A stretch of 64,000 nucleotides of DNA from a virus. Where the stretch lies: IMG/VR virus record IMGVR_UViG_3300002494_000005, positions 3,482-67,481 of that record; one strand, written 5' to 3'. Shown here in pieces: positions 343-61,422 of the stretch (positions are counted from its first letter, which is position 1; every line of letters starts with the position of its first letter). The position numbers and the translations under genes are program-made. A model generated the notes under the pieces. It was given only the letters and a program-made list of their open reading frames with translations. It was not told where the DNA came from and ran no database searches.

Positions 343-1764
343 ATGAGTATTCGCAAGTACGCGCCTAGCCAACGTTTCTTTGACCTGCTCGGATACCAGC
401 CGTATCCGTATCAGGCTGACATTCATAGTTCCCGTGCCCAGCATAGGGTAGTCGTGGTGGGTAGGCAGTCGGGCAAGTCTACATTAGCCGCTGTAGAAGC
501 TACGTTTGAGTTGCTGTTTAACAAGACTTCTTGGGGTTGGGTAGTAGCGCCGGTGTACCAGCAGGCTAGTATTATCTTTGACCGTGTAACTGACATGGTC
601 TATCTGGCCGACACCAAACTGCCGGGTACTCGCGAGATTCGTGTTTCCCGTCGTAACATGACCATTGAAGTTCGCCACTACGACCAGCAGGGTAGGTTCT
701 TGGGTCGTAGTCGCTTTCAGGGTAAAACTGGTGAGAACCCCGATAACCTCCGCGGTGCTAGCTTGAACTACCTGATTGTAGACGAAGCGGCGATGGTAGA
801 CTCTCAGGTCATCTTTGAGTCTTTGATGCCTACTCTGACCACGACTAACGGCTGGACTCTGTTTATCAGCACTCCGAAGGGTTACAACTGGTTCTACGAC
901 ATGTTTCAGCACGCCCTTTCGCACAGACATCACGAAGACTACCCTTACTTGACGCAGTACGCCGCTTGGCAGTTGGCTACCTGGGACGCTAACCCGTCTA
1001 TTCCAGACTCTTTCTTTGAGCAGCAACGTCTTATCATGCCGGAGCGAGTGTTCCGACAAGAGTATGGAGCTGAGTTCTTGGCCGACTCTGGTAGCGTCTT
1101 TCAGCGTCTTGACGAGTGCCCTAAGCTTAAGCCGCTCCGCGTCTCTCCAACGGAACTTCTGCTCAGGTATTCAATACCATACCATCGTTACGTCATTGGC
1201 GCTGACTTTGCTCGTCTTGACGACTTCTCGGTGTTCACCGTGGTAGACGTGGATACTCGTGAAGTGGTGCGCATTTTGAGGATGAACACCGTTTCCTGGG
1301 AACGTCAGTTGGAGGAACTGGCTAAGCTTTATCGTGAATATCCAGGCGCTTTTGTAGCGGTAGACGCCAGGGGTGTTGGAGACCCGTTGGTAGAAGCCTT
1401 AGCTTCCAGAGGCATTCCTGTTAGTCCTATCCAACTGTCTACCGCCGCCATCAAGGAGCAGCTAATCAACAAGCTAGCTCTTGCCATCGAACACGGACGC
1501 ATTACTCTACCGGATAACTACGAGTACTTGCAGGAGTTTAGAGATTTTGTGTATGAGCGCACGGCCGCTGGTGGCTTGAGGATGCGCGCTGCTGGACGTG
1601 GCAAGGACGACCGAGTGTTGTCCTTGGCCATCGCTTGGTGGTTTGTTCCCGAGGAAGGCGTAGGACATGTCCTTGTACCAGATAACTTTACCATTGAACT
1701 GGCCGAAATCCAAGACACTATGGGCGATGAGGCGCTAGAGGACATGGAATCTCTACCGGTTTAG
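343..1764 (+). CDS. terL: Terminase large subunit
   Basis: Walker A GRQSGKS, Walker B YLIVDEAA, ISTPKG motif, RNase H-like nuclease domain (IGADFARLDD, DDRVLSLAIA). Confidence 0.95.
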   Translation: MSIRKYAPSQRFFDLLGYQPYPYQADIHSSRAQHRVVVVGRQSGKSTLAAVEATFELLFNKTSWGWVVAPVYQQASIIFDRVTDMVYLADTKLPGTREIRVSRRNMTIEVRHYDQQGRFLGRSRFQGKTGENPDNLRGASLNYLIVDEAAMVDSQVIFESLMPTLTTTNGWTLFISTPKGYNWFYDMFQHALSHRHHEDYPYLTQYAAWQLATWDANPSIPDSFFEQQRLIMPERVFRQEYGAEFLADSGSVFQRLDECPKLKPLRVSPTELLLRYSIPYHRYVIGADFARLDDFSVFTVVDVDTREVVRILRMNTVSWERQLEELAKLYREYPGAFVAVDARGVGDPLVEALASRGIPVSPIQLSTAAIKEQLINKLALAIEHGRITLPDNYEYLQEFRDFVYERTAAGGLRMRAAGRGKDDRVLSLAIAWWFVPEEGVGHVLVPDNFTIELAEIQDTMGDEALEDMESLPV

Positions 1765-1775
1765 TCGGAGGTGAG

Positions 1776-3179
1776 ATGCGTATACAAGATGCCCCCAAGC
1801 TAATTCTTGGAGCCTTTGGACTCCTGCGCAACGGTGACACTCAGCACGCTGTACCAACTGACGAGTCTACTCCGCTTGACGACTCCGACTTGAATAAGCT
1901 AGTTGGCAATCAGCGTGTACCGCTACTCTCCCTTGACCTGGAAGACAACCAAGGCCAGCTTTTGGTTCAGGCTAACGAGCTTGTTGACCCAGACATGACC
2001 AGGGAGCGGTGGCTTCAGGAGTTTCACCACATGCGCCTAGACGACTCGGTGCAAGACGCGTTAAACATCCTGACCACGGCTCTGCATGGCTTCAAGTACT
2101 ACGTACTACCCGCTAGCGATGACGCCAAGGACGTTAAGGTAGCGGCGTTTATTGCCGACCAGCTTGGCATAGGCCGACCTAGCTTTAGCAAGTACGCGCA
2201 CTTCCGTGTGCTCATGAAGTCCTACGAGTTAGCCCTTATCTATGGCTACTCGGCTGTGGAGATAGTCACCGATACCAATGGTGGCCTGGCTAAGCTGGTA
2301 CCTATCCACCCCTTCCACATCGTGGACATTGAGCGCGACAACAAGGGTGGGCCTAAGAATCTGATTGTGCGTGGTACTGTCAAGGCTGGCGAGACACAGG
2401 TACCCGAGTACAAGGAAGTTAAGGTACCTTTTGTCAAGATTGTGTACTTTGCCCACGATGACGATGGTAACTTGGACGGCAGAAGCCTGCTAAGGGCGGC
2501 TTACGTGCCTTGGCGCATTAAACGCGCCATGCTCCGTTTGGTCAACGCCGGCTATGAGCGCTTTCTGCTTGGTATTCCGGTGCTTACGGTGCCAAAGACC
2601 GTAGTGCCGGGTACCAAGGAGTGGTCGATGGCGGAAAACACGCTCAAGGCCCTCGCTGCCAAGCCGCGGAGCGGCGTAGCTTTGCCTGAGGGTTGGCAGC
2701 TGGAGATTTACACGGTCAACTCTCAGATGCCTGATGCCTTACCGTACATCATCAGGCAGGACGTAGCCATCAAGAGGGCCATGGGTGTGTCGATGGCTTC
2801 TTTGGGTCTAGACACCTCTGGAAACTACAAGCAGGCTGACCAGCTTGGTAAGGTGTCTAGAGAGATGGCCCTTAAATTGGCTAGGGAGTTCATAGACTAT
2901 GTGAACTTGTACCTTGTCAACCGTTTGGTTTTCTTGAACTTTCCTAACCTGACTAGGTACCCGTATCTTGGTCTGGTTAGTTCCGCCCAAGCCGACCCGG
3001 CAAGTGTGCTTAACGCTTTCGCTCAGATGCTGTCCGCCGCCGCTGGCGCTGGAGGCTTTAACGAAGAGACATACAACCGCATCGCTGAATTGGCACCTAG
3101 GGCCATTAGGGATATGTTGGGTTTTGAAGAGGACAAGCTGCTGCGACTGGTTGAAGCGCAGAGGAGGAGTGTGTCATGA
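1776..3179 (+). CDS. Portal protein
   Basis: 467 aa after terL; ALIYGYSAVEIV and GRSLLRAAY motifs typical of DUF935/Mu gp29-like portals. Confidence 0.85.
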   Translation: MRIQDAPKLILGAFGLLRNGDTQHAVPTDESTPLDDSDLNKLVGNQRVPLLSLDLEDNQGQLLVQANELVDPDMTRERWLQEFHHMRLDDSVQDALNILTTALHGFKYYVLPASDDAKDVKVAAFIADQLGIGRPSFSKYAHFRVLMKSYELALIYGYSAVEIVTDTNGGLAKLVPIHPFHIVDIERDNKGGPKNLIVRGTVKAGETQVPEYKEVKVPFVKIVYFAHDDDGNLDGRSLLRAAYVPWRIKRAMLRLVNAGYERFLLGIPVLTVPKTVVPGTKEWSMAENTLKALAAKPRSGVALPEGWQLEIYTVNSQMPDALPYIIRQDVAIKRAMGVSMASLGLDTSGNYKQADQLGKVSREMALKLAREFIDYVNLYLVNRLVFLNFPNLTRYPYLGLVSSAQADPASVLNAFAQMLSAAAGAGGFNEETYNRIAELAPRAIRDMLGFEEDKLLRLVEAQRRSVS

Positions 3180-4144
3180 GTGATATTGATAGGACGCTAC
3201 TTCTTTTTAGTGAGCAGGGTGAGGTCACCGCCCCACTGAACTTTGAGGAAGACCCTGACACTCCACCTAGCTTTGCCGGCAATAAGGTGTCTAAGCCGAT
3301 TCCCATCCTGGTAGAGGGTACTTTCTACGGGTACACGCCTTCCGGGCGTTCGGTGGAGGTGAAATACGACAGGGCCTTCCTTGAAGCGATGGTCAAGAAT
3401 ACCAAGCGTGATGTGGCCATGAACTATGAGCACGTTCGCTATGGTCCTAACACTGTCGGTTGGGTGAAGACAAAGAACGGGAAGTTTTACGTTGACAAGC
3501 TTCCCGATGGCAGGTACGCTCTGTTTGCCCAACTTGAGGTCACGCCTGAGGCGTATGAACGAATTACCTCTGGGCAGTATAGGGACATTTCCGTTGAGGT
3601 TGACCGGAGCAAGAGACGTCTGGTCGGTTTGGCGTTGACTAACTACCCGGCTATTGACGGGATTCATCAGTTTTCTTTGCCAGATGAAGAGACGGAGGTA
3701 GGCATGGAGGAGGCTAAGGTGAAGGACGTTAACGAGGTCGAGGCGCGTTTCTCTGAACAGCTGAACGCGCTTCAGGCTAAGCTGGTCGAGCTTGAGGCCA
3801 AGCTGGAAGAGGAACGCCGTAGGGCTGAGCGGGCTGAACGCCTGCTTCAGTTCTCCGAGAAGCTGGAGCGTTATCAGGGGCGTATTCCCGCCGGCGTGAA
3901 GCCCGCTCTGGTTGAGTTGTACCTGTTTGCCGCGGCGCATGACCAGGAGGTGGTGCAGTTCTCTGACGCTGCCGGAGAGCCCGTCAAGGCTACGCCCGTT
4001 GAGCTTATTGACATGCTTCTGGATGGGTTGGCCACGGTCAACTTCTCCGAGCAGGTGGTAAGCAAGGCCGCTACCACCGATACTCCGGATTTGGACCTGA
4101 GCTACGTGGAGGCGGTTAAGTCTATCGCCAAGAGGCGTCTCTAA
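3176..4144 (+). CDS. Prohead protease/scaffold
   Basis: Mu-I-like protease motifs (NYEH, YRDISVE, GLALTNYPAI) plus an acidic coiled-coil C-terminal scaffold. Confidence 0.75.
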   Translation: MSDIDRTLLLFSEQGEVTAPLNFEEDPDTPPSFAGNKVSKPIPILVEGTFYGYTPSGRSVEVKYDRAFLEAMVKNTKRDVAMNYEHVRYGPNTVGWVKTKNGKFYVDKLPDGRYALFAQLEVTPEAYERITSGQYRDISVEVDRSKRRLVGLALTNYPAIDGIHQFSLPDEETEVGMEEAKVKDVNEVEARFSEQLNALQAKLVELEAKLEEERRRAERAERLLQFSEKLERYQGRIPAGVKPALVELYLFAAAHDQEVVQFSDAAGEPVKATPVELIDMLLDGLATVNFSEQVVSKAATTDTPDLDLSYVEAVKSIAKRRL

Positions 4145-4780: not shown

Positions 4781-5947
4781 ATGGCTATCTTTGAGCTGAA
4801 TGCCGGTTCTGACCTTCGGTTCCCTACGAAGAAGGAAGTTGAGCGCATTCTCCAGGACCTGGACACCGAGTATTTCGGTTGGGCCGACACCAGCCAGTAC
4901 AAGCTGGCTTCTAAGTTTTTCCCTGTCAACGCTATCACGGCCACCGAGCTTGAGATGTATGTGGTCAAGACCCCGCACAAGTACGGGATGACCTACTTCC
5001 ACGCTCCCGGCACTGAGCCCAGGACCTGGAACAAGGAGGAGGCTTATGAAGTCTACAAGGCCTCCTTCAAGGGAGCGCACTTCAAGGAGGGCGTGTACTG
5101 GGGTGAGGTGGAACTGACCGAGCTCGCTTCTGTCGCTCCAGGCCTTCGCACCGTGCGCATTCAGGAGCAGGTGGCCGAGGCTTTGGCCGATATGGCCGAG
5201 CGCCGTAAGCGCCGCATCGAATGGATGGTGGCGCAGATTCTCACCACCGGCAACCTGGTGGTTACTCGTACCTTGCCCGACAACCCCGAGGGCATCGAGT
5301 TCACTGTCGACTACCGTCTGCACAACCCTCTAATTACCCTTACCCACAGGTTTGACGAAGTGGATGCTAGCGGCAAGTCTTTGACCGACCCCATCAAGTT
5401 CTTTGTTGACCTTCGTTACAGCGCCCTTAACGACATGACTGTGGGGCCCGGCAAGTACCTGCCCGCTGAGCTTATCGTCACCTCTAACTTTGTGCGTGTG
5501 CTGCGGAATAACACCAAGTTCTGGGAGGCCTGGTACGGCTTCAACAACCGGGACACCACCAAGGAAGTCACCCCCATCTACTTCTACCCCGACGAGTACA
5601 TTCTTGACGCCTTCTCTCGCATGACCGGGCTGAAGGTTACCGTCTACGACCAGGGCTACCTGGACCAGGACGGGACTTTCCACAAGTTTATCCCCGACAA
5701 TAAGGCTGTGCTCATCTACAGCGGTCCTGGCAAGTTTGGTGAGTTTACCATGACCGCTCACGTGCACACTACCGGGGATAGGCTTACGGTCGGTACTGGC
5801 CCCTATGTGCTTGTGGACGACGGCCGTCGTAAGCCCAACCCCTACTATGCCATTTACCACGGCTTCCACGGCCTGCCCAGGCTTTTGGACTACGACCCCA
5901 AGACTATGGCCAACCACCGTATCAAGTTCTTCCAGTACTCCGCCTAA
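4781..5947 (+). CDS. Major capsid protein
   Basis: 388 aa, lambda gpE-like segment (RRIEWMVAQILTTG; KFIPDNKAVL), strong RBS, followed by a terminator. Confidence 0.85.
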   Translation: MAIFELNAGSDLRFPTKKEVERILQDLDTEYFGWADTSQYKLASKFFPVNAITATELEMYVVKTPHKYGMTYFHAPGTEPRTWNKEEAYEVYKASFKGAHFKEGVYWGEVELTELASVAPGLRTVRIQEQVAEALADMAERRKRRIEWMVAQILTTGNLVVTRTLPDNPEGIEFTVDYRLHNPLITLTHRFDEVDASGKSLTDPIKFFVDLRYSALNDMTVGPGKYLPAELIVTSNFVRVLRNNTKFWEAWYGFNNRDTTKEVTPIYFYPDEYILDAFSRMTGLKVTVYDQGYLDQDGTFHKFIPDNKAVLIYSGPGKFGEFTMTAHVHTTGDRLTVGTGPYVLVDDGRRKPNPYYAIYHGFHGLPRLLDYDPKTMANHRIKFFQYSA

Positions 5948-6003: not shown

Positions 6004-6225
6004 ATGCGTCTACTGGTGACTAACATTGTTTACATTGACCGACTTTACGTGCCTGGTGAATATGTGGAGGTAGACAAGGCCTTGGCCGACAGGCTTGTGA
6101 GCTTGGGCGTGGCTGAACCCGTTGTTGAACCTAAGGCTACTGAGCCTGTACCGGCTGAGGCACTTGAGTCGTCCCAGGAACAAGCGGCGGAGCCGCGGGA
6201 TAAGCCTCGCCGCCGTAAGGAGTGA
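6004..6225 (+). CDS. Small head-associated hypothetical protein
   Basis: GGAGG RBS before ATG 6004; typical small post-capsid ORF. Confidence 0.7.
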   Translation: MRLLVTNIVYIDRLYVPGEYVEVDKALADRLVSLGVAEPVVEPKATEPVPAEALESSQEQAAEPRDKPRRRKE

Positions 6226-7463: not shown

Positions 7464-7938
7464 GCGTGAGTTTGTCAATGCGCTAGTAACATGGCTGCGT
7501 GGTCGAACGTTCTTACTCTACGATGGCTTGGCTGTCGGCTTTACAGTGGTCACGGTTGGCCGCTATCCAGAGCGCGCTCCTGGGTTTCCTGTGGCTGTGG
7601 TGGTACCTCTAGGCCCTACGTGGGAGAACGTGGTGTTGGGTGCTGGAAGTCGTCTTGACCGCGTGGCTCGCAAGGTGCAAGTTGCCATAGAAGTCCACTA
7701 CGAACATGTAGACGCTGAAACTGGGCTTTATCACATGTCTGACATCTTCAACCAGCTGGTAGAAGGCCTTTTGCAGCCTCCTAGAGTGTTGGACGAGGTG
7801 ATGCTACGAATAGTGGACACCGACTACAGTTACGCCATTCAGGACAAGATTACTCAGGACCAAGAGATTCCTGACCTCATTCCTGATTGGGGTTACAAGG
7901 GCGTTGGGGTTGTGGTGCTAGAAGCGGAATGGAGGTGA
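7450..7938 (+). CDS. Probable tail terminator/completion protein
   Basis: Position before the tail tube; alpha/beta pattern with FPVAVV. Confidence 0.55.
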   Translation: MRNREREFVNALVTWLRGRTFLLYDGLAVGFTVVTVGRYPERAPGFPVAVVVPLGPTWENVVLGAGSRLDRVARKVQVAIEVHYEHVDAETGLYHMSDIFNQLVEGLLQPPRVLDEVMLRIVDTDYSYAIQDKITQDQEIPDLIPDWGYKGVGVVVLEAEWR

Positions 7939-8129: not shown

Positions 8130-9151
8130 TGGCGCGTGGCATTGATTCCATTGTGGTCTTGAAGCAGCAGTCGGCTCAGGGCACCCCGGCTACGCTGGCG
8201 GCCAGCGACTACGCGCTTCCTATTCGCAGCGAAAGCTTGCAGGCTAGGCCAACCATCTACGGTTCCGAGGCCTTGCGTAAGCAGGCCATGCGGGACAAGA
8301 AGTTGGCGAGGCTTGGTACGCTTGACGTCAGCGGTAGCCTGGAAGTGGAGGCTACTAACCACGGGCTGAGCATCATCCTGCCGCTGGTGTTTGGGCAGGT
8401 TAGTACGCTGACGGCTGTGGGGTCTGATACCGGCGTTACCTGGCCGGCTAATAACTACGGCAAGCGGTATCAGCTTTCTACCGCCGACTTGCCCTACTCC
8501 ACGGTAGCCGTCTACGATGGGGAAGTCCGTAAACTTTTCACCGACATGAAGGTATCCCGCCTGAGCCTGCGGGCTGACATCAACCAGCTGGCTCTTCTTA
8601 GCCTTGACCTTGTGGGCATTCAGGCCAGCGTAGACGGTACCGCCGTCACGGCTACGGTGCCGGCTTCGGAATACGGGTTGTACTTTGAGCACGCTGATGT
8701 CCTTATTGGAGACGCTGGCGGTACGCTGACCAGTGTCCCCGTGCGCTCCTTCAGCTTGGACATTAACACCAACCCCAACACCGACCGGTACCGGCTTGGT
8801 AGCCGCTTCCGCAGGGCTGTGCCCACCGGGCGGTTTGACATCACCGGTAGCGTTGACCTGGACGCTAACAGCTTCCCCGGTGACCCGCAGAAGTTCTACA
8901 CCGCCGTCCTCAACGGTCAGTTCTTGAAGCTGAGGTTGGTGTTCTCCGACCCCACCAACACGGTTAGCTACACCGTGGGCACTACCAACCACACCACTAA
9001 TTCTCAGTTCATCGTGGACATTCCTTTCGCGCTTATCGAGTGGCCCAACCACAACATCAACGGTCCTGACATCATCACCGGGGCTGTGAACTTCACCGCT
9101 TACGCTGACGGTAGTACCGGCGTTTCCATTGACCACATCTACAAGCTTTAA
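8129..9151 (+). CDS. Major tail tube protein
   Basis: 340 aa, beta-rich, siphoviral tube-like motifs (VSGSLEVE, DITGSVDL), followed by a terminator and TAC genes. Confidence 0.8.
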   Translation: MARGIDSIVVLKQQSAQGTPATLAASDYALPIRSESLQARPTIYGSEALRKQAMRDKKLARLGTLDVSGSLEVEATNHGLSIILPLVFGQVSTLTAVGSDTGVTWPANNYGKRYQLSTADLPYSTVAVYDGEVRKLFTDMKVSRLSLRADINQLALLSLDLVGIQASVDGTAVTATVPASEYGLYFEHADVLIGDAGGTLTSVPVRSFSLDINTNPNTDRYRLGSRFRRAVPTGRFDITGSVDLDANSFPGDPQKFYTAVLNGQFLKLRLVFSDPTNTVSYTVGTTNHTTNSQFIVDIPFALIEWPNHNINGPDIITGAVNFTAYADGSTGVSIDHIYKL

Positions 9152-9807: not shown

Positions 9808-12800
9808 ATGGCGGATGTGCGTGTGGATGTGGAGCTGACCACCAGCATGAAAGGTGTGCAAACCGAACTCGCTAGAGTTCTCAGGCCCATTGAGCAGCTT
9901 CTGCAGAAACTAAGCGGTAACGCTACTCTTGACCTACAGTTGACCAAGCAAGGTGCTGGTCTGGTATCTAAGCAGTTAGAGGAGTTCGCTTCTAAAGTCG
10001 GTATTGACCAAAAGGAAGCTAAGAGACTTGGAGAGGCTTTCCGTGTCTTTGTAGCCGACATTGACCGCTACTTGCGCAATGTGCGTCGTGGTGAGTTAGA
10101 AGAAGCCGGTAGGCGTCTTGACTCTGCCATGAAAAGTCTGCAAACCTTTACTGAAGGAATTGCTGCGTGGGATGAAAAACTCAAAGGTGTTACTCTGCCA
10201 ACCTTTAGAATAACTGCCGTACGCGATGGTAAAGCCATTATCATTATTGACTCCAAGAAAGTCATTGACGTGGCAGAGGCAATAGAAGCTGATTTGAACC
10301 GGTTTTTTACTGACCGCACTAAGAAAGAGGCGCAGGAACTTAGGAAGCAGCTGTATTTGCGACTGCAGAGAATTAAGCGAGACGCTAGCCAGGGTAAACT
10401 CGATGAGGCTAAGGAGGCTTTAGAAGGCGTTTACAAGGAACTGAAGACCTCTGGCGGTTTGCCTGACCCACGTCAGCTTAAGGATATTAAGAACGTGCTT
10501 AGAGAGTTGAGTGCGCAAACTAAAGACCTAGTCGCTAACACGGCCGCTGAACTGCAGAAGCTGGCTAAAGAATACCTGGTCAGCTCCGTGTTGCCTAAGT
10601 TTGCTCCAGGAGTAGACCCTGATGCCCTATTGCGCGCCTATAGCTATCTGGGGGGTTCCAGGCAAGCTTTGCTTGACGCTTTCTTTAACGCGCTAATACA
10701 AAACAATCAGTTTAACAACATGGCAGCTGGTCAGACTGCTAAAGGTTTACAGCAGACTGTAGCCAGGCTGGTAGGCCACATAGAGCAGACCATGATGCAA
10801 AGCTTGATGAGTACCGAGTATGGTCGTGACCTTATCGCTTCCAAAGGTCAGGAAGCGTTTATGGACCAGCTAGCCGGAGCGTACAGTCTTTTGTCCAGTC
10901 GGCTTCTGTACGCCAGTCCGCAAAGTCTACAAAACACGGCTAACATGTTCTTAAAGGACGCTGAAGCCGCTAAGAAGAAGTTTAATATAGCGCTGGATGA
11001 CGTTCGTGGCATTGGGTTGGCCCTTAACTCAGTGGCTGAAATGCTAGAAAAGCAGTTTGGTGAGTCGGTCTCCATTATGGAGGCCTTGAGCATGTACGCT
11101 CATAGCAATCTCCTAAACGAGATGGCCGAAAGTAACCCCTTGACCGGAGCATACAGGTTTGGTCGTCAACGCGCTTTGGACACCAGGCACGAAGACTACT
11201 TGAGAGCTTTCCTGCCTGGCCTGTACAACCGTTACCGGCAGCTATCGGCGGCGGGAGACCCAACCGCGCTCAAGTTCCGCACCGAGTTTGTGTCCCGCCT
11301 AGGGACCTCGGTGGACGCTATGCACGGCCTGCTACTAAACTCGCTGGCCAACTTTGCGTCCGGTATCGGTATCGGAGCTTTCTTTGGCACTGTTTACGCT
11401 GTATCTCAATACGTTCAGCAAATGCAGGAACTCAATAAGCAGCTGCTCGCCTACAAGAAGATACTGGAAATGCGTGGTGAGCAAAGCATGGCCGATAGCG
11501 TGAGCGCGCTCCGCGACCGTCTACTGGAGCTGGCCAAAGCTAGCGGCGTGGCTGTAGAGGAAGTAGCTAGACTGTTTGGTACTGTTGCCCGCAACGGCAT
11601 GAGCACAGACGGAATGGAACGCCTGCTCGGTGTAGTCGGCAGGCTAAACGAAGTGTTTGGCATACCGTTTGATGCCTTGCGTAGTGACATCGCTGAAACT
11701 TTATTGCAACACAGGCAGTACTTCCTCGGTCCGGACACCATTTCTAGAGTGCTAGAGTACGGCGGACCACAAGCTGACAAAGCTTTGAACATTTTTAACG
11801 AGTTGATAAAGATGGCCAGTAGCGCCGCTTTCTCGTTTGACGAGCTGGCTAAAGCTGTACGTTTTTATCTTGACACTGGTAAACCGGTAAAAGACAGTTT
11901 CTACGAAATCGCTAAAGCCGTGGAATACGGCGGTACCGTTGCTGAGGACATGGCCAAGAAGCTTCACCAGATGGCCGAAGAAACTGTTGATTTTGGTCAA
12001 ATACTTACCCATGGAGGCGAATACCAGGAAAACCTTCAGCAGCTGCAAAAGCAACTAGGTCTTACCATATCTTCGCTTGGTCACGACATCATGGCCGGGT
12101 TCGGCATTGGCGAGGCGTCTACCTTCATGGCGACTCTGCAGGCTATGCTGACCGGCTTTCTGGCTTTGGTCAAAGGTCTGCAAGACTTTATTAACGCCGT
12201 CCTGAATCTGAAAGTGATTGGGCCAATGCTGCAGGCTGCCCTCGCTGTCTTGACCGGTACTGGCATAACGGTCCTGGTAGTCTCCATGTTCCGCCTGTTG
12301 GCTTTGTTCGCCTCAAGGGTCATGGAGTCTGTGACGGCTACCACGGCTATACTGCGTAGCGCTAACCTGACTACCGGCATAGCTACGGCTACCAATCTCT
12401 TGGTGGCCCTGCGTGTCAACCTGGTCAAGTTCTTCACCTCGCTAGGCGCTGTGATAGCGGCTGCCGGTACCGGCGCTATGAGTTTGCTGCGCTCCGGTGG
12501 GCTGGCAGCGCTAGCTGGTGGGGCTTTGGCCGCCGTTCGTGGTGGTATTGGTGCCGCCTTGGCAGGTGGGGCGGCATTACTCGGGGCTATCCCTGGTATT
12601 GGCTGGATGGCTTTAGGCGCCACGGCGTTGGTCGGTACCGGAGTGTACCTAGCCACAAAGAACGCTAGACGTCGCGAAGAGGAGATTAACAAGGCATTAG
12701 AGTCTTCGCGACAGCTGATACCGTCCATTAATCGGGCAGAGTATAAGGGCGGTGTAGTCAACCTTTACTCTCCAGACAACACCACCAGCACTCCGACTTA

Positions 12801-15800
12801 TGCCATTGACCTTGAAAAGCTGCGTAGTAAGGACGCCACCGACAAGCTGGTAGCCTATATGCTTGGAAAGCTTCAAGGAGCGGATAGACTAGTTTACGAG
12901 CAAGCTGCTAACTTAATGCGCGCCCTTAACATTCAGGATAAGGCCTCGCTGGAGCGGTACCGCGAACAGCTTAAGGAGGAAATGATAAAACTCTCTAAAG
13001 ACTATGCCACGGCTGACCAGAAACGTAGAGAACTTATTAATCAGCAGCTGCTGAACTTGACTGCCGTAGCTAACATCGTTAACGCTGTCGGAGATGCTTA
13101 CGTTGCGGCTGTTCAAAGGGCTTCCGGTGTGATGCAACAGACGGAAACGCGCGCTTCTCTGGATGCGCAGTACCGGGCTAAACTGACCGAACACGCCACT
13201 GAGATGGCCAAGATGACTGACCGCGAAAAGGCTGAGTTTCAAAAGAAAATTGCTTTGAAGCTTATCCAGAACACTGTTGGTGACGAGCGTGGAAAGGGTC
13301 TGTTTGCCGTGGATTCTGCGCAATCGTGGCTTACTCAAGTGCTGGAAAACTTGGAACGGGAGCTTAACGACCGGTTGCTGGAAGCGGAATCTTTCTCGAC
13401 TGAGACCGCTAGAAACTCCGCTAAACGGGCGGCTTACTCTTGGTACATATCTCAGCTTCAAGCCACAAAAAGCGAACTCACCTCGTTTTTTAAGAAGGCT
13501 AAGCTTGACCCCCAACTCGCTACCAGGCTTAATGGCCTGCTATACGTGAAGACGCGCGAAGCCAAAGCGCGTGTTGAGCAGATAGACAGACAGGTGCGGG
13601 ATTTTGAGCGCTCTCTCGCTGACGCCGGCGCTCAGTCTGCTCAGCAGCTAAACAACGTCATGAAGGAAGCTTTCTATGGTCCTACCAGCACACCCAGCCT
13701 CGCTGCCAAGCTGCTGGCTACCGCTGAGAGCATTCTGAACACTACCGCTAATGACGCCCCTGAAAAAGCTGCAATTGTAGCCAAGCAGGTTAACGCTTAC
13801 TTGGCCAAGAATCTCGCGGTAGCGCAAGAGTATGACCGCAAAGTGCAGACCATGCTCAACGAGTTTGCCGCAGCTAAAAGGGTCTCCGACCCTGAAAAGC
13901 GGTTCCAAAACTTGAAACTTGTGGTTCAGAAATACTTGGGTGAGTACTCCAAGAGTCTCAATAAGGTGCCTGGGCTAGCTTTGCAGATTGCCGACCAACT
14001 AGAGGCCGCGCTGTTTAAAGACGGCGGCATGCTGTCGGCCATCAATAGCCTGACAGATTCTACAATCAGAGAGCTTAAGAACATAGCCGAGCGGGTTAAG
14101 CAAAAAGACTATGGTCCATTTGCCGACTTGGGCAGGGTGATAGAGGGCTTTGCCAAAGGCGTGGAGACACTAGCCAAGGTTGGTGTTATGACCGCCGACT
14201 TCAAAAACTTGAGCAGTAAATACCAAACGCTTCTCCAAGACGTCAGGCTAACTCAGGTAAAAGGTTTAGACAAGGCTATAACTATTACCAAAGACGAGCT
14301 AAAACATTACAAGAGCCTTTCTAAACTGTCTGACGGGGACAAAGCGTACATGGCCATGCTTGAGGCACACATTAATAACCTTACCGAAATCAAAAACCTG
14401 ATGGTAGAGTTAGAGAGCATAGATAGACAGTTGAGCAGTAACATTGATGCCAAGACCAAAACCGCTTTGTCGTCCAAGCGGCGACAAGAACTAATCGCTA
14501 GGAAGATTGAAATTGAACGTAAACTAGCAGCTTTGCGCGCTGACGCTGAGAAGCGTAGTCAGGATTTGGCAACCGCCACCTCTCAGCTTATGGATACACT
14601 CACCGACTACACCGGCAGCCTTAAAGACGCCATATCCGGGCTACTCTCCGCTATAACTAGCACGCTTGAAGATTTTAAGAACAAGATTAACGACCAAAAA
14701 GAAAAACTAGATAGCATGGTAAAAGCTTACTTGCAGCGTGGAACTCGTGTGTCTCTTGTAGAAGAAGAGGACCAAAGGTATGAGGAACTAAAGAAGTCTA
14801 TCGATGAACAACGCAAGTCTGTAGAGCCGTTTAAGAAAGCTTTGGATGAGATAGAAAAACTGTTGAATGGTAACCAAATCAACAACCTTAAGACGGTACT
14901 GGAAGCTATAGCTAGCGGTAAAACTTTGCCAGATACCGCTAGTGATGAAGTGAAAAAGATGTACAATGCTTTGAAGGGAAGCATCTCGGCTGCTTTTGCA
15001 GAGGAACTCTTAAGTAAGCTTGTGTCTGGTGTAGACGTGATAAGTGAGTTTATTGGCAAAGTAAAGGACGAGTTAAACGCCCTTTTCCTTGGCTTTGAAG
15101 CAGCAAAACAGAACGCTGCCCAGCATTACGAAGGTTTGCGCGAAGCTGCTCAGATTCGTGAAAAGGTGCAGCGTTTGGAAGAGTCTAAGAGCAAGCTAAT
15201 TGAGACGCTATCTGTTGCTGATGACCTTGAAGCTTATCGTGGTCAAGTAGACGACTTTGTTAGGGAAGCCGGAACCCTGCAAAGCAAACTGAACGAGTTT
15301 AAGGCAAAGTACCCCGAGTTTGACGTTAAGGACATAGAACAGTCGCTAAGCGAAACAAACCAGATTATCGTTGAGTACTTCTCCATGTTTGTGGATAAAG
15401 CAATTAACCAGCTACCACAGCTGTCTGAAGTGCTTAAGCCAACTGACGAAGACTTGAAGAAAATTACCGATGCTTTGAATCTGCTAGACAAAATAGACCA
15501 GGAATTGAGCGTTACTAAAGACCCTAAGGTAAAGGCCGGGCTTAGTAAGCTACGCAAAAATCTAGTGAACGCTTTGGTACAACTGGCAGAAAAAGATGGC
15601 GATTCTGTTTTGAGCTACATAGAATCTGCCCTTGGCCCAGAGATGTTTGCCAAACTACGAGCAGAGAAGACCCTGAAAGAATTTGGCGACAAGGTAGCGT
15701 CTGTTGGCAAGCTATTAGACGTCAAGGTCGAGTCTTTAAGCGACATACCGGCCGCCGAAGAGAGTATTCAGCGTGCCAAAGAAGCGTTAGAACAGCGTAA

Positions 15801-18168: not shown

Positions 18169-18221
18169 TCCCGATAGTCGGGCGCGGAGCGCCTTAGCAC
18201 TGGTATTTGTCAGGAGGTACC

Positions 18222-29408: not shown

Positions 29409-29416
29409 GGTGCTAT

Positions 29417-37461: not shown

Positions 37462-37494
37462 TTTTACCTCCATTTGAGAACGCGCGGAGCGCGT

Positions 37495-41448: not shown

Positions 41449-41748
41449 TCACTTGACTCGTGTCTCGCCTAAGAGGCGAAACTTGCCGTAGTCGTCTGGA
41501 CCATACACCGACACGTACAAGCCACCGTCTTTGACGCTTAGGGTGCAGGTAAAGTCGTAAACGGAACCCCAGCCATAGTGAATGATGGCTTGAGCGCAAG
41601 CGGTGACCAAGTCGTGGTCCATGTACACCACTGGCCGTATAGCCAGCTGACTAGACTGCGCGGTCTTCTTGTCGTTCAGACAGAAGTACGTCCACAGCGC
41701 GTTTGCGAACACCATGAGCCCTAAAAGCAACAACCAGCGGTTTGCCAT
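41449..41748 (-). CDS. Hypothetical protein with N-terminal TM/signal
   Basis: Hydrophobic N-terminus; RBS. Confidence 0.6.
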   Translation of the reverse strand: MANRWLLLLGLMVFANALWTYFCLNDKKTAQSSQLAIRPVVYMDHDLVTACAQAIIHYGWGSVYDFTCTLSVKDGGLYVSVYGPDDYGKFRLLGETRVK

Positions 41749-42328
41749 TGAGTCTCCTCTCCTTCTTGAAGCAAAGCATGCACCTGTCGCAGGTCACATC
41801 AGGATTGGTCTGGTTAGGGCAAACGAGAACGCTGACCTGGTCGTGTTCAACACGTTTTGGGAAACCTGATGGCACTACCACGACGGTAGGCCACCCATTA
41901 GCCAACGCGCGGAGCGCGTCTTCCAACGACTCGGTAGAAGCGTTGATGGTCAAGTTAGGCAAAGAGTTAAGCAAAGAAGAGTCTAGTCTCCTCCACCCGT
42001 GGGTGTAACTCCAACCTTTTAGGTCTTTTCGGTTGGAGTGTACTTCTAGTATACCAGAAATGGTACTCCAGTCAGGTTGGTCATTAGCAAATAAGTCTCC
42101 AGACACCATGTAACGAATTTTAGAGCCCGGAGGCAACCGCAAAAGCTTGTCTTTCCAATTGTCAGGCGCGGTAGCGCTCCTAGACGAGTGCATAGCTACA
42201 GGACCATGCTGAGCGTAGCAACCGTTATTGAGTAATGGACACTCACTAGGGCAAGCGTCTCCAACAGGACGGTAGGTGCGATACGCGTTTCCAAGCTTTG
42301 GGTGAAAGTCGTTTTTGGCTACCAGCAT
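41651..42328 (-). CDS. Cys-rich putative Fe-S protein (gp88-like phage family)
   Basis: CPSECP..GCYA, RYMVSGD, WSYTH, CP..TCDRCMLC, FRAHG. Confidence 0.6.
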   Translation of the reverse strand: MLVAKNDFHPKLGNAYRTYRPVGDACPSECPLLNNGCYAQHGPVAMHSSRSATAPDNWKDKLLRLPPGSKIRYMVSGDLFANDQPDWSTISGILEVHSNRKDLKGWSYTHGWRRLDSSLLNSLPNLTINASTESLEDALRALANGWPTVVVVPSGFPKRVEHDQVSVLVCPNQTNPDVTCDRCMLCFKKERRLNGKPLVVAFRAHGVRKRAVDVLLSERQEDRAV

Positions 42329-42343
42329 GCTAGCCTCCTTTGA

Positions 42344-42380
42344 GAAAAGAAAAACCCCCAACCAAGATGGTTGGGGGTTT
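42344..42380 (-). terminator. Intrinsic terminator
   Basis: Minus strand AAACCCCCAACCA-TCT-TGGTTGGGGGTTT-TTCTTTT. Confidence 0.75.
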
Positions 42381-47340: not shown

Positions 47341-48469
47341 GCGTGGTCAGTCCTCCGATGCGATTCTTGGTAGTCCAAATCTCCCGCTGGTGTGGAGACT
47401 TGGGCAGGATGAACGACACCACCCACGCGTACTGCGGTACTTTGCTTGACCCTTCAATGGCCGTGTTATCAGGCGGCATCGGTTGACCATCCCGGTCACC
47501 GTACAACACTCGCTTTACACCCTCACGATTCATCTGACTCAAGACTAACCAGACGGTACTGGTGTCTCTCGCGAAGCGGAATATCTGCTTCATGGCGTTT
47601 GTGATGAGAGTGTACTGGTCGGTGTACTCATTGCCGACCAACGACTGCACAAAGTCTAGCACAAACACTTTTGCGCCGTTTTCGGTAAACCGCTCCGCGG
47701 TTCCAATAATGGAGTGTATGTCGTCGGTACCGCTTACGATGTAAAGTGGCAGGTTAGCCAAGTCATCTTTAAGCTTACTAAGCTTTTCCTTGTTGACCGT
47801 CTTCTGGAAGTAAGCCTGTGGTCCCACATCCGCTCCACCGAGGTGCTGTAAGTAGCGGAGTACACGCACTTGAGCCGCGAGTTCTAGCGTGAAGTCCACT
47901 ACCGGGTACCCGCTCTTGGCAGCGTGTAACGCTACTTGCTCTGCGAAAGCGCTTTTGCCAACACCTTCAGGAGCGGCTATCACGTACACACCACCAGGAT
48001 ACAGAGGTCCCCAAACCTTTTGCAAACCGGCAAGTTCCAGCGGCAAGTCTACCGTGTATCCCGGTTCATTTAAGTCATCAAGAAGCATGCTAATGGTATA
48101 TTCCTCACCGGTGCTGAACGGTTCGGTAGGAAAGCTCGTGATTAAGTCGCTGACCTGACTTAAGTCACGGCGTGTACACGCTTGCTGAACCTTGGTAGCG
48201 TGGTGTTCCACCTCTCTCAGGTAACCCTCCAAGAGCAGGTCATTCACCACTTGTTCTAAGGGCGGTAGCCCTTGGACGATGGCTATGTCTCGCAAGAGCA
48301 GAGACTCACCACCAAGCGGTTGACCATCTATGAGCCTTTCCGCTATACGCCGGTAAGTGGGATTGCTGAAGTAGCGCAACGGTACTCGCATTAGCTGCTT
48401 AATTCCATCAGGACCGGCGTGGTAAGCTGCGGAAAGAGCGGTTAGTTCCAGTCGTTCTTTGGTGTCCAT
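47294..48469 (-). CDS. DnaB-like (SF4) helicase
   Basis: APEGVGKS, FTLEL, LDFVQ, LSQMNR, KNR. Confidence 0.85.
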   Translation of the reverse strand: MDTKERLELTALSAAYHAGPDGIKQLMRVPLRYFSNPTYRRIAERLIDGQPLGGESLLLRDIAIVQGLPPLEQVVNDLLLEGYLREVEHHATKVQQACTRRDLSQVSDLITSFPTEPFSTGEEYTISMLLDDLNEPGYTVDLPLELAGLQKVWGPLYPGGVYVIAAPEGVGKSAFAEQVALHAAKSGYPVVDFTLELAAQVRVLRYLQHLGGADVGPQAYFQKTVNKEKLSKLKDDLANLPLYIVSGTDDIHSIIGTAERFTENGAKVFVLDFVQSLVGNEYTDQYTLITNAMKQIFRFARDTSTVWLVLSQMNREGVKRVLYGDRDGQPMPPDNTAIEGSSKVPQYAWVVSFILPKSPHQREIWTTKNRIGGLTTHVTANYIGEYLTFHA

Positions 48470-48559: not shown

Positions 48560-49288
48560 TTATAGCATATCGTACAAGGAGTCAAGGGCTTCTTTCAGGA
48601 TAGCAGGGTCTTGCACTTTGCTAAGCCTGTCTACTCCGGCCTTACGAGCAAAATCGGCCAGTAGCTTGGTGGCCTGATTCTTTTTGTCAGGGTCAGTGAT
48701 GCCCTGATACACCTTTGTCAAGGAGTCCAGCAAGGTCTTGACTTCCTCATTGACCGGCCGCGGAGCGGCGGACTGCTGTGTATTAGCCGGCTCAGACTTA
48801 GTAGTAAAACTTTTAGTCCGGTTGGTCTTGTCAAAGCCCTGAGCCTGACGTTCGTCTTCGGAGTAGAGGTCCAGACCAAACTGAGGACCCCAATGACGCA
48901 GAGTACGCTTCAGAGCATCGGTGACCGCTTCCTTGATGGCAGACTCCACAGCGTCTGAAACATTGCTCATCACACCCTGACCGGTACCGACATCGCTGTG
49001 GGTGTTGTACACATGACCGGTCTCAGGGTCGTGTACCCTTACCGTGACTAAAGCCGTGTACACGCACACCCATTTCTTGCGGTTCTCGTCAAAACCGAGA
49101 TGCACCTGCTTAAGCTCACCGACCTCGCTAGACCAACCAAGGTGACCAAACGCCTGGTTGGCATTGTTGATAGCGGTATAACCCTCGATGTATGCCAACT
49201 GTCTACCGGCCTGCTCCCTGTACTTGACCACACTAGGGTCAAGCTTGACCTTAAGCTTCTCCTCAATGACCTGAACGTTCACACTCAT
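48560..49288 (-). CDS. Rad52/Sak single-strand annealing protein
   Basis: LAYIEG..AINNANQAFGHLGWS, DVGTG, AIKEAVTDALKR..G..FGLDLY. Confidence 0.9.
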   Translation of the reverse strand: MSVNVQVIEEKLKVKLDPSVVKYREQAGRQLAYIEGYTAINNANQAFGHLGWSSEVGELKQVHLGFDENRKKWVCVYTALVTVRVHDPETGHVYNTHSDVGTGQGVMSNVSDAVESAIKEAVTDALKRTLRHWGPQFGLDLYSEDERQAQGFDKTNRTKSFTTKSEPANTQQSAAPRPVNEEVKTLLDSLTKVYQGITDPDKKNQATKLLADFARKAGVDRLSKVQDPAILKEALDSLYDML

Positions 49289-49342
49289 GTTCTTCTCCTC
49301 CTTATGTTCTGCTCCTTCACGCTTGCTTACAATTCTGGCCAT

Positions 49343-50652: not shown

Positions 50653-50690
50653 GGCTTTTGCCCTCCTGCCCATACACCAGACGCGGAGCG

Positions 50691-51377
50691 TCAGATTATC
50701 CTGTATCCTTTACCGCGCGCTAACGGCCTGAGTTCTTCCGGCATTCTGTCTATGTATTCTGGAAGCTTCTCTTTCAAGAACTCCTTTAGATGGTCGTTGT
50801 TGCTGTACATGCCCATTTTATTGTTGGTGTGCACTATTTCTCTGATGAGGTCGTAAGTTGGCAACGACACAAAAGCTGGCCTGGTGAAACGCAAGTTGTA
50901 GTCTTCCACCATGAATGTGGGCAAGTAGCCGATTTTGGTATCAAACACCAACGACAGGTACTTGCCCTCAAGACCATGCACGATGTCCGGTAGCTTAGTG
51001 CCGTCAAACACAACGATTGCCGAGTTTTCTGAGAGAGTGTAAAACGCGTTGCGTTGGAGGATAATAGACCTCTGACGAATCGGACGAATAGACTCATTCT
51101 TTACCAGGATGTCAAAGAGTATAGCGTAGTCCGGGTATAACTGCACAACACACGACATGTTGTACATGGTCAACGTAATCGGATGAACAGAAATTGGTAG
51201 AGACAGGTGTTCTGTTGTGTTTTCGTTTTTAGGAGACAAAGTTAAGTCCACGTCCGAGAGTGTAAACTCGACCATGACTCGTGACTGTGTGTGTTCATTA
51301 CTATCCAGTTCTTTCATGTCTTTTACCACACCACCAAATGCCGATATTAGCCGCAGAACTCTTTCACGTGTGCGCAT
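50691..51377 (-). CDS. Hypothetical protein
   Basis: GGAGG RBS, coupled. Confidence 0.7.
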   Translation of the reverse strand: MRTRERVLRLISAFGGVVKDMKELDSNEHTQSRVMVEFTLSDVDLTLSPKNENTTEHLSLPISVHPITLTMYNMSCVVQLYPDYAILFDILVKNESIRPIRQRSIILQRNAFYTLSENSAIVVFDGTKLPDIVHGLEGKYLSLVFDTKIGYLPTFMVEDYNLRFTRPAFVSLPTYDLIREIVHTNNKMGMYSNNDHLKEFLKEKLPEYIDRMPEELRPLARGKGYRII

Positions 51378-52728: not shown

Positions 52729-52839
52729 GCCCCTATAAGCCCGTAAAATGGCTTATACGGCCCTGGAAGAGTTGCCCTAGTGTTAGACACTAGGGTTATC
52801 ACCCAAGGCCGTATAAGCCATTATAGCGGGTTACAGGGC
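52729..52839 (+). repeat. Long inverted-repeat element, copy A
   Basis: About 37-bp imperfect terminal IRs around CCCTAGTGT-TAG-ACACTAGGG. Confidence 0.85.
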
Positions 52840-57357: not shown

Positions 57358-57636
57358 CTACCATAGCCACCACCAGAGTGATTTCTTTTCTTCAGCACTG
57401 TAACGTTCAAATCTAACTTCATCTCCCATGCACCAGGCGCGGAGCGCCATCTTCTCTCTACTCCTCCTTCTTCTAGCCTTTTCACGTTTAAAGTCTTTAT
57501 ATCCCTTGCTCCTTATTCCCTTCTGAGACTTGTAGAACTTTCTCACGTAAGCGTCTATGTCGTTTACCAAGAACATCACTTTAGCCTTCATCCTACGCTT
57601 AGCTACCTTCCTTTGCATCAGCTTCTCCTGATACAT
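57358..57636 (-). CDS. Small very basic protein
   Basis: K/R-rich, coupled to its neighbours. Confidence 0.6.
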   Translation of the reverse strand: MYQEKLMQRKVAKRRMKAKVMFLVNDIDAYVRKFYKSQKGIRSKGYKDFKREKARRRRSREKMALRAWCMGDEVRFERYSAEEKKSLWWWLW

Positions 57637-58567: not shown

Positions 58568-58596
58568 ATCATATAGCTTGTTTTTTTGTTTGTCAA
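58568..58596 (-). promoter_or_regulatory. Sigma70-type promoter
   Basis: Minus strand TTGACA-N17-TATGAT. Confidence 0.65.
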
Positions 58597-59913: not shown

Positions 59914-60077
59914 CCCCTGTAGCCCCGTAAAACGGCTTATACGGCCTTGGAGACAGTGCCCTAGTGGTAGACATTAGGGCAAGAGTACCAAAATCAGGAT
60001 TATGCCGATACTCATCGGCAAAAGCCCGATTTTGGCATCTTTAGGTCCAAGGCCGTATAAGCCATTTTACGCGGTTA
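59914..60077 (+). repeat. Long inverted-repeat element, copy B
   Basis: Same IR arms and inner hairpin as copy A, plus an extra nested hairpin. Confidence 0.85.
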
Positions 60078-60795: not shown

Positions 60796-60813
60796 ACTAC
60801 CCTCCCCGTGTAC

Positions 60814-61083: not shown

Positions 61084-61324
61084 AGCTTTCCTCCTCTACA
61101 GACTCAAGAAGATTGTTTAGTGCGTGGATAAGATTCTCCTGCTGGTCGTTGAAGTAAACCCGGTGGGTGTTCTTGTCGAGGTACAACGTTATATAACCGC
61201 TGTACCTGAACTCAGTGTCCCTGAGCTTACGAATAAGCTCGCGGGACAAGCACACACCCTCGATTTCTTCTTTTACCCTACCCCTGCCATCGTACAACTC
61301 GACGCTGATTAACGCTTTAGTCAT
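61076..61324 (-). CDS. Hypothetical early protein
   Basis: AGGAG RBS. Confidence 0.65.
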   Translation of the reverse strand: MTKALISVELYDGRGRVKEEIEGVCLSRELIRKLRDTEFRYSGYITLYLDKNTHRVYFNDQQENLIHALNNLLESVEEESYA

Positions 61325-61349
61325 GTTTCTACTCCTTTCTGGAGGTTAC

Positions 61350-61422
61350 CCTCCGTTCAACAGGCGCGGAGCGCCTGTCTTCTCTTTTTAAAGTAACCTC
61401 CATTCGACACGCGCGGAGCGCG
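61350..61422 (-). promoter_or_regulatory. Tandem copies of the CGCTCCGCG-N9-YGGAGG motif (candidate phage-RNAP promoters)
   Basis: Two intergenic copies pointing into the early operon; the motif recurs genome-wide. Confidence 0.55.

Follow-up and report, generated by a model that had tools for sequence, protein, structure and literature searches.

A short bipartite motif recurs on both strands of a 64-kb window of viral DNA (the whole stretch analyzed here, out of the 67.5-kb IMG/VR record IMGVR_UViG_3300002494_000005), and this motif is probably a hairpin-type promoter. Its reader would be a non-virion, sigma-less two-barrel RNA polymerase, a homologue of gp64 of phage P23-45, and the promoter would be N4-like in architecture while being served by an enzyme of unrelated fold. 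The window comes from a hot-spring phage genome, that of a phiFa-like Thermus phage distantly related to P23-45. From sequence comparisons we infer both that the polymerase binds the motif and where RNA synthesis starts (+1).

As read on the non-template strand, the proposed promoter would comprise a purine-rich tract, a GC-rich stem of 5-6 bp whose inner three pairs (CGC/GCG) are fixed, and a TCC loop. The stem-loop would be followed by a spacer of ~10 nt ending in A-A/T-Y and then by +1 within G-G-R-G. On the template strand, the same inverted repeat would yield a G-G-A triloop closed by a C:G pair, which belongs to the very stable GNA mini-hairpin class. This hairpin might be extruded by negative supercoiling or by local melting, and the polymerase would then read the loop and inner stem sequence-specifically and the outer stem as structure only, beginning synthesis ~15 nt from the loop center. 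At many sites, the first transcribed bases would at the same time be a Shine-Dalgarno sequence or supply the 5' arm of a terminal RNA hairpin.

A 9-mer, a second element and a covarying stem

The initial annotation had listed 16 exact copies of a 9-mer (CGCTCCGCG, or CGCGGAGCG as its reverse complement), and a k-mer count returned exactly these copies, at the same coordinates and on the same strands. In 100 dinucleotide-preserving shuffles of the window the mean was 0.56 copies and the maximum 2, which puts the observed number at ~30x chance. All 16 copies of the 67.5-kb contig fall inside the window. When synonymous codons were permuted within 64 open reading frames (ORFs), 0.48 copies were expected where 11 are seen inside ORFs (~20x). 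This rules out codon usage or a peptide repeat as the origin of the 9-mer, with a codon-phase bias remaining that is taken up below.

Every copy carries the second element that had been described at near-fixed spacing. A pyrimidine followed by G-R-R stands after CGCTCCGCG-N10-12 in 16/16 copies (8.0% of random positions), and the stricter form, Y|GGR at N10-11, is present in 12/16 (null 2.7%). Read on the CGCTCCGCG strand, this start element is mostly A-A/T-Y|GGAG or GGGA. The 9-mer signal is all-or-none. One-mismatch copies number 11, which is at chance (shuffles give ~15 for 0-1 mismatch), and the second element accompanies none of them. The near-match reported earlier at 36245 is present as CGCGGAGCA, but it too lacks the second element. 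Only changes that preserve pairing extend the set: two compensatory variants absent from the initial annotation, GGC-TCC-GCC at 6186 and 40678, each have Y|GGG at the proper spacing. The core has 16 possible compensatory versions, and in the window the second element occurs only with CGC..GCG (16/16) and GGC..GCC (2/2), and with none of the other ten occurrences. The exact copies and the two variants together make 18 window sites, 12 leftward and 6 rightward, and all of their +1 positions are predicted. As a negative control, the 9-mer was examined in unrelated IMG/VR DNA; among the matches listed (352 copies at 118 loci), the second element is found in 13%, stem extension in 10% and both in 1% (4/352).

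The flanks of the 9-mer co-vary to lengthen its stem, as had been suggested. The numbers of extra contiguous Watson-Crick pairs per copy are 0, 2, 0, 6, 2, 0, 3, 4, 3, 3, 3, 2, 2, 2, 5 and 2, meaning that the core 3-bp stem is extended by 2-6 pairs in 13/16 copies (null for at least two extra pairs, 6.2%). When the 3' flanks were permuted among sites, the observed pair sum was reached in 0/20000 trials. An alignment of 42 loop-centered sites from four genomes gives a fuller picture. The three inner stem pairs are fixed or exchanged as pairs. Pair 4 is GC at 19 sites, CG at 17 and AU at 2, and pair 5 is GC at 23, AU at 8 and CG at 7, with four sites unpaired in each case (38/42 paired). Watson-Crick stems are 5 bp long at 18 sites, 6 bp at 13, 7-9 bp at 5 and 3-4 bp at 6. 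The stem covariation score is 0.473 compared to 0.167 in shuffles, none of which reach it (0/500). Slid controls give at most 0.20, a comparison flattered by centering the alignment on the hairpin; the shuffle control and the independent compensatory changes are free of that bias.

On the CGCGGAGCG strand, which is the template only by the inferred direction, the loop is G-G-A closed by C:G in 42/42 sites. When hairpins with stems of 5 bp or more are grouped by loop, TCC/GGA is the most frequent triloop in the window (18/160), in phiFa (22/250) and in G001, a 69.7-kb viral record whose polymerase is 45% identical to that of the window (9/184), but not in P23-45 (6/238). Folding of single-stranded DNA at 37 C gives the hairpin as the minimum-energy structure at 8/8 sites tried, and five of these beat nearly all shuffles. 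Judged by the alignment, then, the motif is a hairpin with covarying stem positions, and the recognized form would presumably be folded DNA rather than duplex sequence or RNA.

Two features near the sites bear on how the hairpins might be misread. The possibility that they are intrinsic terminators (hairpin plus U-run) was rejected: on the gene strand they precede a spacer and a G-rich element, not T-runs. A terminator scan flags three of the hairpins, on the opposite strand only, and these flags arise because of an upstream pyrimidine tract. Purine-only tracts (AGAGAAGA-like) precede early intergenic sites on the gene strand, at 57447-57475, 61374-61400 and 61421-61450 (-) in the window and at 5085-5113, 5140-5165 and 7660-7684 in phiFa, with the pyrimidine runs on the other strand.

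The polymerase, gene starts and related phages

The presumed reader of the motif is encoded at 61764-63851 on the minus strand as a single-subunit polymerase of 695 amino acids with a GGDHDGDD metal-binding motif. The protein shares 54% amino acid identity with phiFa_44, annotated as 'RNA polymerase'. In an hhalign comparison, a profile of 21 homologues matches P23-45 gp64 over 150 columns around the DxDGD/GGDHDGDD loop (E 5e-5, probability 67%). An AlphaFold (AF2) model of the ORF has a pLDDT of 87, and its best Foldseek matches in the PDB (top entries 8f5m and 8f72) are P74-26 gp62, P23-45 gp64, QDE-1 and plant RDR2, followed by the gp96 polymerase. A fold search was needed for this assignment: Pfam returns a weak RdRP match, and no PDB sequence matched the polymerase, its profile or the tape-measure protein. 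With these results, the ORF is a two-barrel polymerase of the P23-45 gp64/QDE-1 clade, as the initial annotation had claimed. It is the sole RNA polymerase candidate found in the window, and the T7-like virion polymerase that characterizes the N4 system was not found.

The tape-measure protein (9808-18135, 2775 amino acids) aligns with P23-45 gp96 at the C-terminus only, and the comparison with gp96 revealed no counterpart of its N-terminal polymerase. As the match is confined to the C-terminus, the window phage is grouped with phiFa and G18, in which a non-virion polymerase is present and a tape-measure-fused virion polymerase is absent according to the available text of PMC10770324. The long ORFs form two opposed blocks, a rightward one from 343 to ~33.7 kb and a leftward one from 63851 to ~34.2 kb. 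The leftward block includes genes for a family-A DNA polymerase, a class II ribonucleotide reductase (RNR), a DnaB-like helicase (with a DnaB Pfam match) and the 695-amino acid polymerase. The gene order of phiFa is the mirror image of this arrangement.

The promoter reading draws much of its strength from sites that stand directly before genes. A tandem pair of sites lies downstream of the polymerase gene. The first (site 61412; 61398-61425, minus strand) is sense and intergenic, with a 5-bp stem and a predicted +1 at 61401 on GGAGG, and is located 47 nt upstream of the second, ahead of the same ORF. The second (site 61365; 61351-61381, minus strand) has an 8-bp stem and a predicted +1 at 61354, with an ATG ~30 nt downstream, and its predicted transcript bears a GGAGG/CCTCC hairpin at the 5' end. 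Site 57438 (57424-57451, minus strand), also sense, has its predicted +1 at 57427 (GGGAG) with an in-frame ATG next, which would give a 5-nt leader to a 273-amino acid ORF; the orthologous site in phiFa is at 7685. At site 50682 (50668-50695, minus strand), sense and intergenic, the predicted +1 at 50671 is accompanied by the Shine-Dalgarno sequence GGAGGG and an ATG 19 nt from +1 (252-amino acid ORF). Site 37483 (37468-37498, minus strand), sense and intergenic directly after the RNR gene, combines a 7-bp stem with a predicted +1 at 37471 on GGAGG and an ATG 10 nt from +1 (206-amino acid ORF), and is syntenic with phiFa 31088.

At 61365, 57438, 50682 and 37483, the predicted +1 thus precedes an ORF start codon by 5-30 nt. 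The distance to a long-ORF start codon is 5-19 nt at 57438, 37483 and 50682 in the window, at 16815 in phiFa and at 21496 in G001, and similar spacing is apparent at phiFa 18179 and 31088 when the sequence is read by eye; +1 falls on GGAGG or GGGG. The predicted first bases form the Shine-Dalgarno sequence at phiFa 16815, 18179 and 31088 and at G001 21496. Across the early/middle half of the window, 8/11 sites are sense and five of those are directly before gene starts. The earlier statement that 61365, 61412, 50682 and 37483 sit just upstream of ribosome-binding sites in the sense direction holds, with one adjustment: because these genes lie on the minus strand, the sense-strand form of the motif is CGCTCCGCG...GGAG.

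The predicted transcripts also begin in an unusual manner. A 5'-terminal RNA hairpin starting from the predicted +1 or +2 is found at 13/36 sites compared to 10.5-11.5% of random positions, and the count peaks at offset 0. Such terminal stem-loops occur at 61354-61341, 41895-41868 and 31851-31834 in the window and at 14672-14702 and 16247-16281 in G001, and possibly serve as 5'-end stability elements.

The same gene-start arrangement raises the question of whether the motif acts in RNA. A UCC-loop mRNA hairpin 10 nt before GGAG could govern processing, stability or translational control of the downstream gene, and several phiFa and window sites do lie in very short co-directional gaps, with a stop codon directly ahead of them and the Shine-Dalgarno sequence of the following gene 10 nt further on. 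Stem covariation is equally compatible with RNA. However, the full bipartite motif is also present at the 7/18 sites that are antisense to every long ORF, several intragenic sites have no downstream start codon, no Rfam family matches, and there is no sense-strand G.U excess at informative stem positions. An RNA-level element is therefore very unlikely.

Further support for the promoter reading comes from related phages, in which the motif had been proposed to be sought. Polymerase identities to that of the window are 54-55% for phiFa and for two relatives, L133 and L134, whereas the P23-45 enzyme is barely alignable; closer homologues (P0002-P0017) reach ~64-67%, and others (P0026, P0028-P0031) 40-46%. 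A search for relatives with the polymerase alignment yielded one viral locus and two metagenome loci. The single polymerase sequence found no match in viral contigs, the polymerase alignment found none in genome contigs, and a DnaB query found none either. In phiFa, the same 9-mer occurs 18 times in a non-redundant 71 kb (~1.2 expected), with the same layout as in the window. Places common to the two phages are the tandem pair, which follows the polymerase gene at ~0.35-0.45 kb, the site immediately behind the RNR gene, 57438/7685 and 41908/26770, together with two antisense intragenic places, in the portal gene (2665/65676) and in the helicase gene (47691/19796). The tandem pair after the polymerase gene is syntenic in phiFa (5114/5166), L133 and L134, and two metagenome fragments near phiFa show the phiFa site pattern.

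Outside this group the signal changes. G001 has no copies of the 9-mer; it has stem-variant hairpins instead, five of the form GCGCC-TCC-GGCGC(C)-N7-8-C|GGGG, all on the strand of the polymerase gene within a 7-kb early block, the first of them 29 nt after that gene. Between the window and G001, the loop, the GC-rich stem and the loop-to-start distance (15-16 nt) are kept, while stem sequence and start differ. P23-45 has three copies of the 9-mer, which is no enrichment, and lacks the TCC/GGA triloop class. Motif specificity thus changes with polymerase lineage, a link that is correlative and covers three lineages only. One observation stands apart from this pattern: P23-45 (L011) carries a single complete site at 8456-8464 (6-bp stem, spacer and Y|GGAG) within its RNR gene, orthologous to window site 37956. 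RNR is the sole region with megablast-level similarity between P23-45 and the window, and DNA-level similarity of the window to the phage collection is likewise confined to it (P23-45-like Thermus phages, ~75% identity). This suggests that the RNR gene has been exchanged between phage lineages with different polymerase signals.

Sites in the late region can be compared with a closer relative (G003), which has ~80% nucleotide identity there. Four of the five alignable sites keep the whole 9-mer, one of them with a compensatory stem change. By simple arithmetic, chance retention per site is 0.8^9 = 0.13, and the probability of at least 4/5 is ~0.001. By this comparison, the late-region sites are evidently under purifying selection and are not decaying junk. 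An additional antisense site is present in the terminase gene of close relatives including G003 (L139 2542 and L140 2333, versus ~751-759 in the window). Four of the five local differences from the window coincide with key positions of the motif, a pattern suggestive of directed gain or loss.

Orientation, rival readings and known promoters

Several observations weigh against a promoter of this kind. Seven of the 18 sites are antisense to local genes and ~10 are inside ORFs. In the late regions of the window and phiFa, counting exact and variant sites, antisense sites outnumber sense sites by 8 to 4 or 5, and for this reason the sites cannot simply boost late genes. The intragenic sites cluster in one codon phase (x-Leu-Arg-x in 5/6 sense sites and x-Arg-Ser-x in 3/4 antisense sites), and coding constraints therefore shape the permitted positions. 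A 5-bp hairpin is marginal at Thermus growth temperatures, and even in the 37 C folds 3/8 sites are not clearly above shuffles. Counts of G.T versus A.C mismatches at stem positions give no hint as to which strand folds. Among the sites alignable to phiFa, 4/11 keep the 9-mer and 7/11 do not, and close relatives gain or lose sites. The P23-45 gp64 motif is termed 'less conserved' and a hairpin is never mentioned in the available text of PMC10770324, compared to an all-or-none 9-mer here. Finally, a transcriptome search listed no RNA run holding the sequence, a metatranscriptome of the same sample has next to no matching words, and the literature searched contains no transcript 5' ends, chromatin immunoprecipitation or binding data for this phage or phiFa.

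The arrangement of neighboring sites is also not predicted by a simple promoter. Within 1.7 kb, a threshold picked after inspecting the data, the window has five convergent, no divergent and two tandem neighbors, which label shuffles reach in 403/100000 trials. The same count is weaker in phiFa (four convergent, one divergent and five tandem; 12270/100000). In both phages, 5/6 of the minority-direction sites face a majority-direction site, and 12/18 sites point in the reading direction of the early genes. According to the scheme in the available text of the phiFa paper, this is likely also the direction of DNA entry. That sites act as head-on pairs, that late genes are silenced by antisense transcription and that transcription drives DNA entry are no more than hypotheses.

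Two rival readings would explain the two-strand intragenic copies more easily than a promoter does. In one, the motif would be a single-strand priming signal: once the DNA is unwound, either an archaeo-eukaryotic-type primase working with the DnaB-like helicase or the RNA polymerase in a primase role would read the hairpin, and primers would start at the G-rich element. Plasmid and phage ssi signals are generally built as a hairpin with a start close by. Sites on both strands (12 leftward, 6 rightward), located inside genes regardless of transcription direction and conserved at the nucleotide level within coding sequence, would suit such a role, and the annotation of phiFa includes a eukaryotic-type primase small subunit and a DnaB helicase for this phage family. 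Priming fits poorly with other features. All five G001 sites share one strand and are confined to the 7-kb early block that begins just behind the polymerase gene. The start element coincides in three lineages with a Shine-Dalgarno sequence 5-19 nt before start codons, which would be pointless for a primer, and the predicted products have terminal RNA hairpins above chance. Lagging-strand priming would also call for more than 18 sites in 64 kb, and nowhere in the genome does the orientation of the sites switch. That the motif tracks polymerase lineage is a weaker objection, as the primase diverges in parallel. Overall, priming seems unlikely.

The second rival, about equally improbable, holds that the motif is the site of another DNA-acting phage protein, such as a structure-specific nickase, a regulator, or a recombination or packaging factor, and that the G-rich element is part of this site and not a start of synthesis. 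All-or-none specificity for the 9-mer, dispersal over two strands with conservation inside genes, and the convergent pairs would all be natural for such a site. The phiFa annotation and paper describe T5-like long terminal repeats in phiFa-like phages. Nicked genomes are known in the T5-like lifestyle. No candidate protein has been identified, however, and at stem pairs 4-5 base identity is free while pairing is kept, which favors a folded nucleic acid over a duplex operator. Transcription also accounts better for the coupling to gene starts and for the tandem pair that follows the polymerase gene in every lineage.

The promoter reading explains this coupling, the tandem pair and the one-strand cluster of G001 better than any rival. 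The proposal in the initial annotation, a hairpin promoter read by the two-barrel RNA polymerase, is upheld in part. Enzyme class, covarying hairpin, lineage change and a G-rich element at +1 spacing to Shine-Dalgarno sequences and starts speak for it, but the antisense and intragenic sites and the late antisense excess are not explained by promoters placed before genes. A wider interpretation that takes in these sites can be offered only tentatively. In it, a polymerase of the gp64/QDE-1 clade would read an extruded template-strand GNA-triloop hairpin, a second independent invention of the N4 solution, and would use it genome-wide in both directions, also organizing antisense transcription, unit boundaries or DNA internalization. 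Leftward sites would run with genome entry through the late genes, and the minority rightward sites would oppose them head-on at distances of 0.4-1.5 kb.

Comparison with known systems places the motif near two of them. P23-45 gp64 is reported to initiate at phage-specific GC-rich promoters of early and some middle genes (PMC10770324, Chaban et al. 2024). The enzyme belongs to the same family, and in both phages the polymerase gene is at the entering end with early and middle genes downstream on the same strand. According to the available text, a GC-rich, phage-specific motif and the absence of a sigma factor are likewise shared (PMC10770324). The P23-45 motif could not be recovered from the k-mers or intergenic regions of that phage, and its likeness to the window motif is by text description only.

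The resemblance to the early promoters of the N4 virion RNA polymerase, drawn in the initial annotation, is borne out for architecture, as far as the accessible portion of PMC4496689 describes them. Those promoters are inverted repeats that form a short hairpin with a 3-nt loop, which on the template strand has a 5' G and a 3' A and is closed by C:G, a GNA triloop like that on the presumed template strand here. Inner stem and loop are fixed and the outer stem is free if paired; the C:G-closed loop, together with these fixed inner and free outer bases, is named in that review as needed for hairpin extrusion and stability. Transcription starts at a fixed short distance downstream, and the polymerase is single-subunit and sigma-less. 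The differences are also clear. The N4 enzyme has a T7-like fold and the present one is two-barrel, such that any likeness would be convergent. N4 has three early promoters on the first-injected portion of its genome, in contrast to 18 sites genome-wide on both strands; its loop center is at -11, compared to approximately -15 from the predicted +1 in the window; and its requirement for gyrase and single-stranded DNA-binding protein has been demonstrated (PMC4496689). At most, the motif would function in the manner of an N4 promoter; it does not belong to the N4 system itself.

Two other comparisons are more distant. The two-barrel polymerase of phage AR9 is also phage-encoded, lacks a classical sigma factor and reads its promoter on the template strand, but it is multisubunit and needs uracil in the DNA, and no hairpin appears in the title or abstract (PMC5449584). 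Template-strand C-GGA-G within GC pairs falls into the GCGNAGC class of extraordinarily stable DNA mini-hairpins; this work, in the portion available, is physical chemistry and is silent on function in this phage (PMC13037366). No description of the motif was found in full-text literature searches or in the available text of PMC10770324, PMC7515739, PMC4124052 and PMC11437467, whose figures and supplements may hold one. A gp64-family promoter is thus known in kind, while the exact motif, its hairpin nature and its genome-wide use on two strands are undescribed in the texts searched, figures and supplements aside.

How sigma-less single-subunit two-barrel phage polymerases find their promoters is an open question, for which the available text on P23-45 gp64 gives nothing more specific than a GC-rich motif of loose conservation. 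In the phiFa-like lineage the signal is much sharper, with an exact 9-mer, a covarying stem and a fixed start, and a single purified protein with short oligonucleotides would allow a direct test. Should the polymerase indeed read the hairpin, two unrelated polymerase folds would have converged on one promoter architecture, and the pair of promoter and polymerase would be compact, thermostable and orthogonal. The conserved antisense and head-on sites point to a genome-wide regulatory layer undescribed for these phages.

Individual sites and other sequence features

The remaining sites of the leftward gene block include two head-on pairs within the replication genes and their neighbors. Site 48759 (48745-48772, minus strand; predicted +1 48748) is sense within ORF 48560-49342, upstream of the DnaB-like helicase gene. 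It is faced by site 47691 (47686-47714, plus strand; predicted +1 47711), which is antisense inside the helicase gene (codons A-E-R) and whose 9-mer is kept in phiFa (19796). Site 41908 (41893-41922, minus strand; predicted +1 41896) is sense inside ORF 41651-42361 and has a strong hairpin at the predicted transcript start; in phiFa (26770) the 9-mer, the entire spacer and the start are all kept. Facing it is variant site 40678 (40673-40701, plus strand; predicted +1 40698), antisense, in which GGC-TCC-GCC reflects a compensatory change of the outer core pair. Site 37956 (37942-37970, minus strand; predicted +1 37945) is sense inside the RNR gene, is lost in phiFa and has its full copy in P23-45 (8456). 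Site 37086 (37080-37108, plus strand; predicted +1 37105), antisense inside ORF 36841-37473 and not kept in phiFa, faces 37483 at 0.4 kb.

In the late region, site 31863 (31849-31876, minus strand) is antisense inside ORF 29390-31981, with a predicted +1 at 31852 followed by a palindromic hairpin, and is not kept in phiFa. Site 18183 (18169-18196, minus strand; predicted +1 18172) lies in the gap that separates the tape-measure gene from the late gene that follows, and points antisense. Its predicted transcript runs into a terminator-like hairpin behind the tape-measure gene, and the site is absent through an indel in G003 and phiFa. Two sense sites lie inside the tape-measure gene, neither kept in phiFa. 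Site 17180 (17171-17204, plus strand; predicted +1 17201) has a 9-bp stem and a spacer of 12, and in G003 keeps its 9-mer while a stem pair has changed in compensatory fashion from A-T to G-C. Site 11507 (11502-11529, plus strand; predicted +1 11526) has no stem extension, and is absent from G003/L140 as a result of two substitutions in the 9-mer. Variant site 6186 (GGC-TCC-GCC; 6172-6199, minus strand; predicted +1 6175) is antisense, and in G003 its core, stem and start are kept although the flanks have changed. Site 2665 (2651-2678, minus strand; predicted +1 2654) is antisense inside the portal gene (codons P-R-S-G), with the 9-mer kept in phiFa, L139 and L140/G003. It faces site 1133 (1128-1155, plus strand; predicted +1 1152), which is sense inside the large terminase gene, has no stem extension, and is kept in L139 and L140/G003 but not in phiFa.

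A second over-represented element, CAAGGCCGTATAAGCC, was considered as a rival promoter candidate and rejected, because it forms three inverted pairs that are not in gene direction. It is the core of a ~60-nt repeat with an adjacent CTAGTGT...ACACTAG palindrome, located in early-region gaps at 52740-52830, 59920-60070 and 61530-61680, and one of the inverted pairs separates the polymerase gene from the tandem hairpin sites. P23-45 has similar sequence in its large left-end gap (38117-38963), as does phiFa beside site 2451. The best sigma-70-like match in the early region, TTGACA-17-TATGAT at 58568-58596 (minus strand; 11/12 positions), is a candidate promoter for the host polymerase; such matches are no more numerous in that region than in shuffles. 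Another 9-mer, ATGAGCACA, has five copies (0.14 expected under a third-order Markov model), at 2207, 5707, 11599, 20713 and 34374, on both strands and inside ORFs with no obvious shared context.

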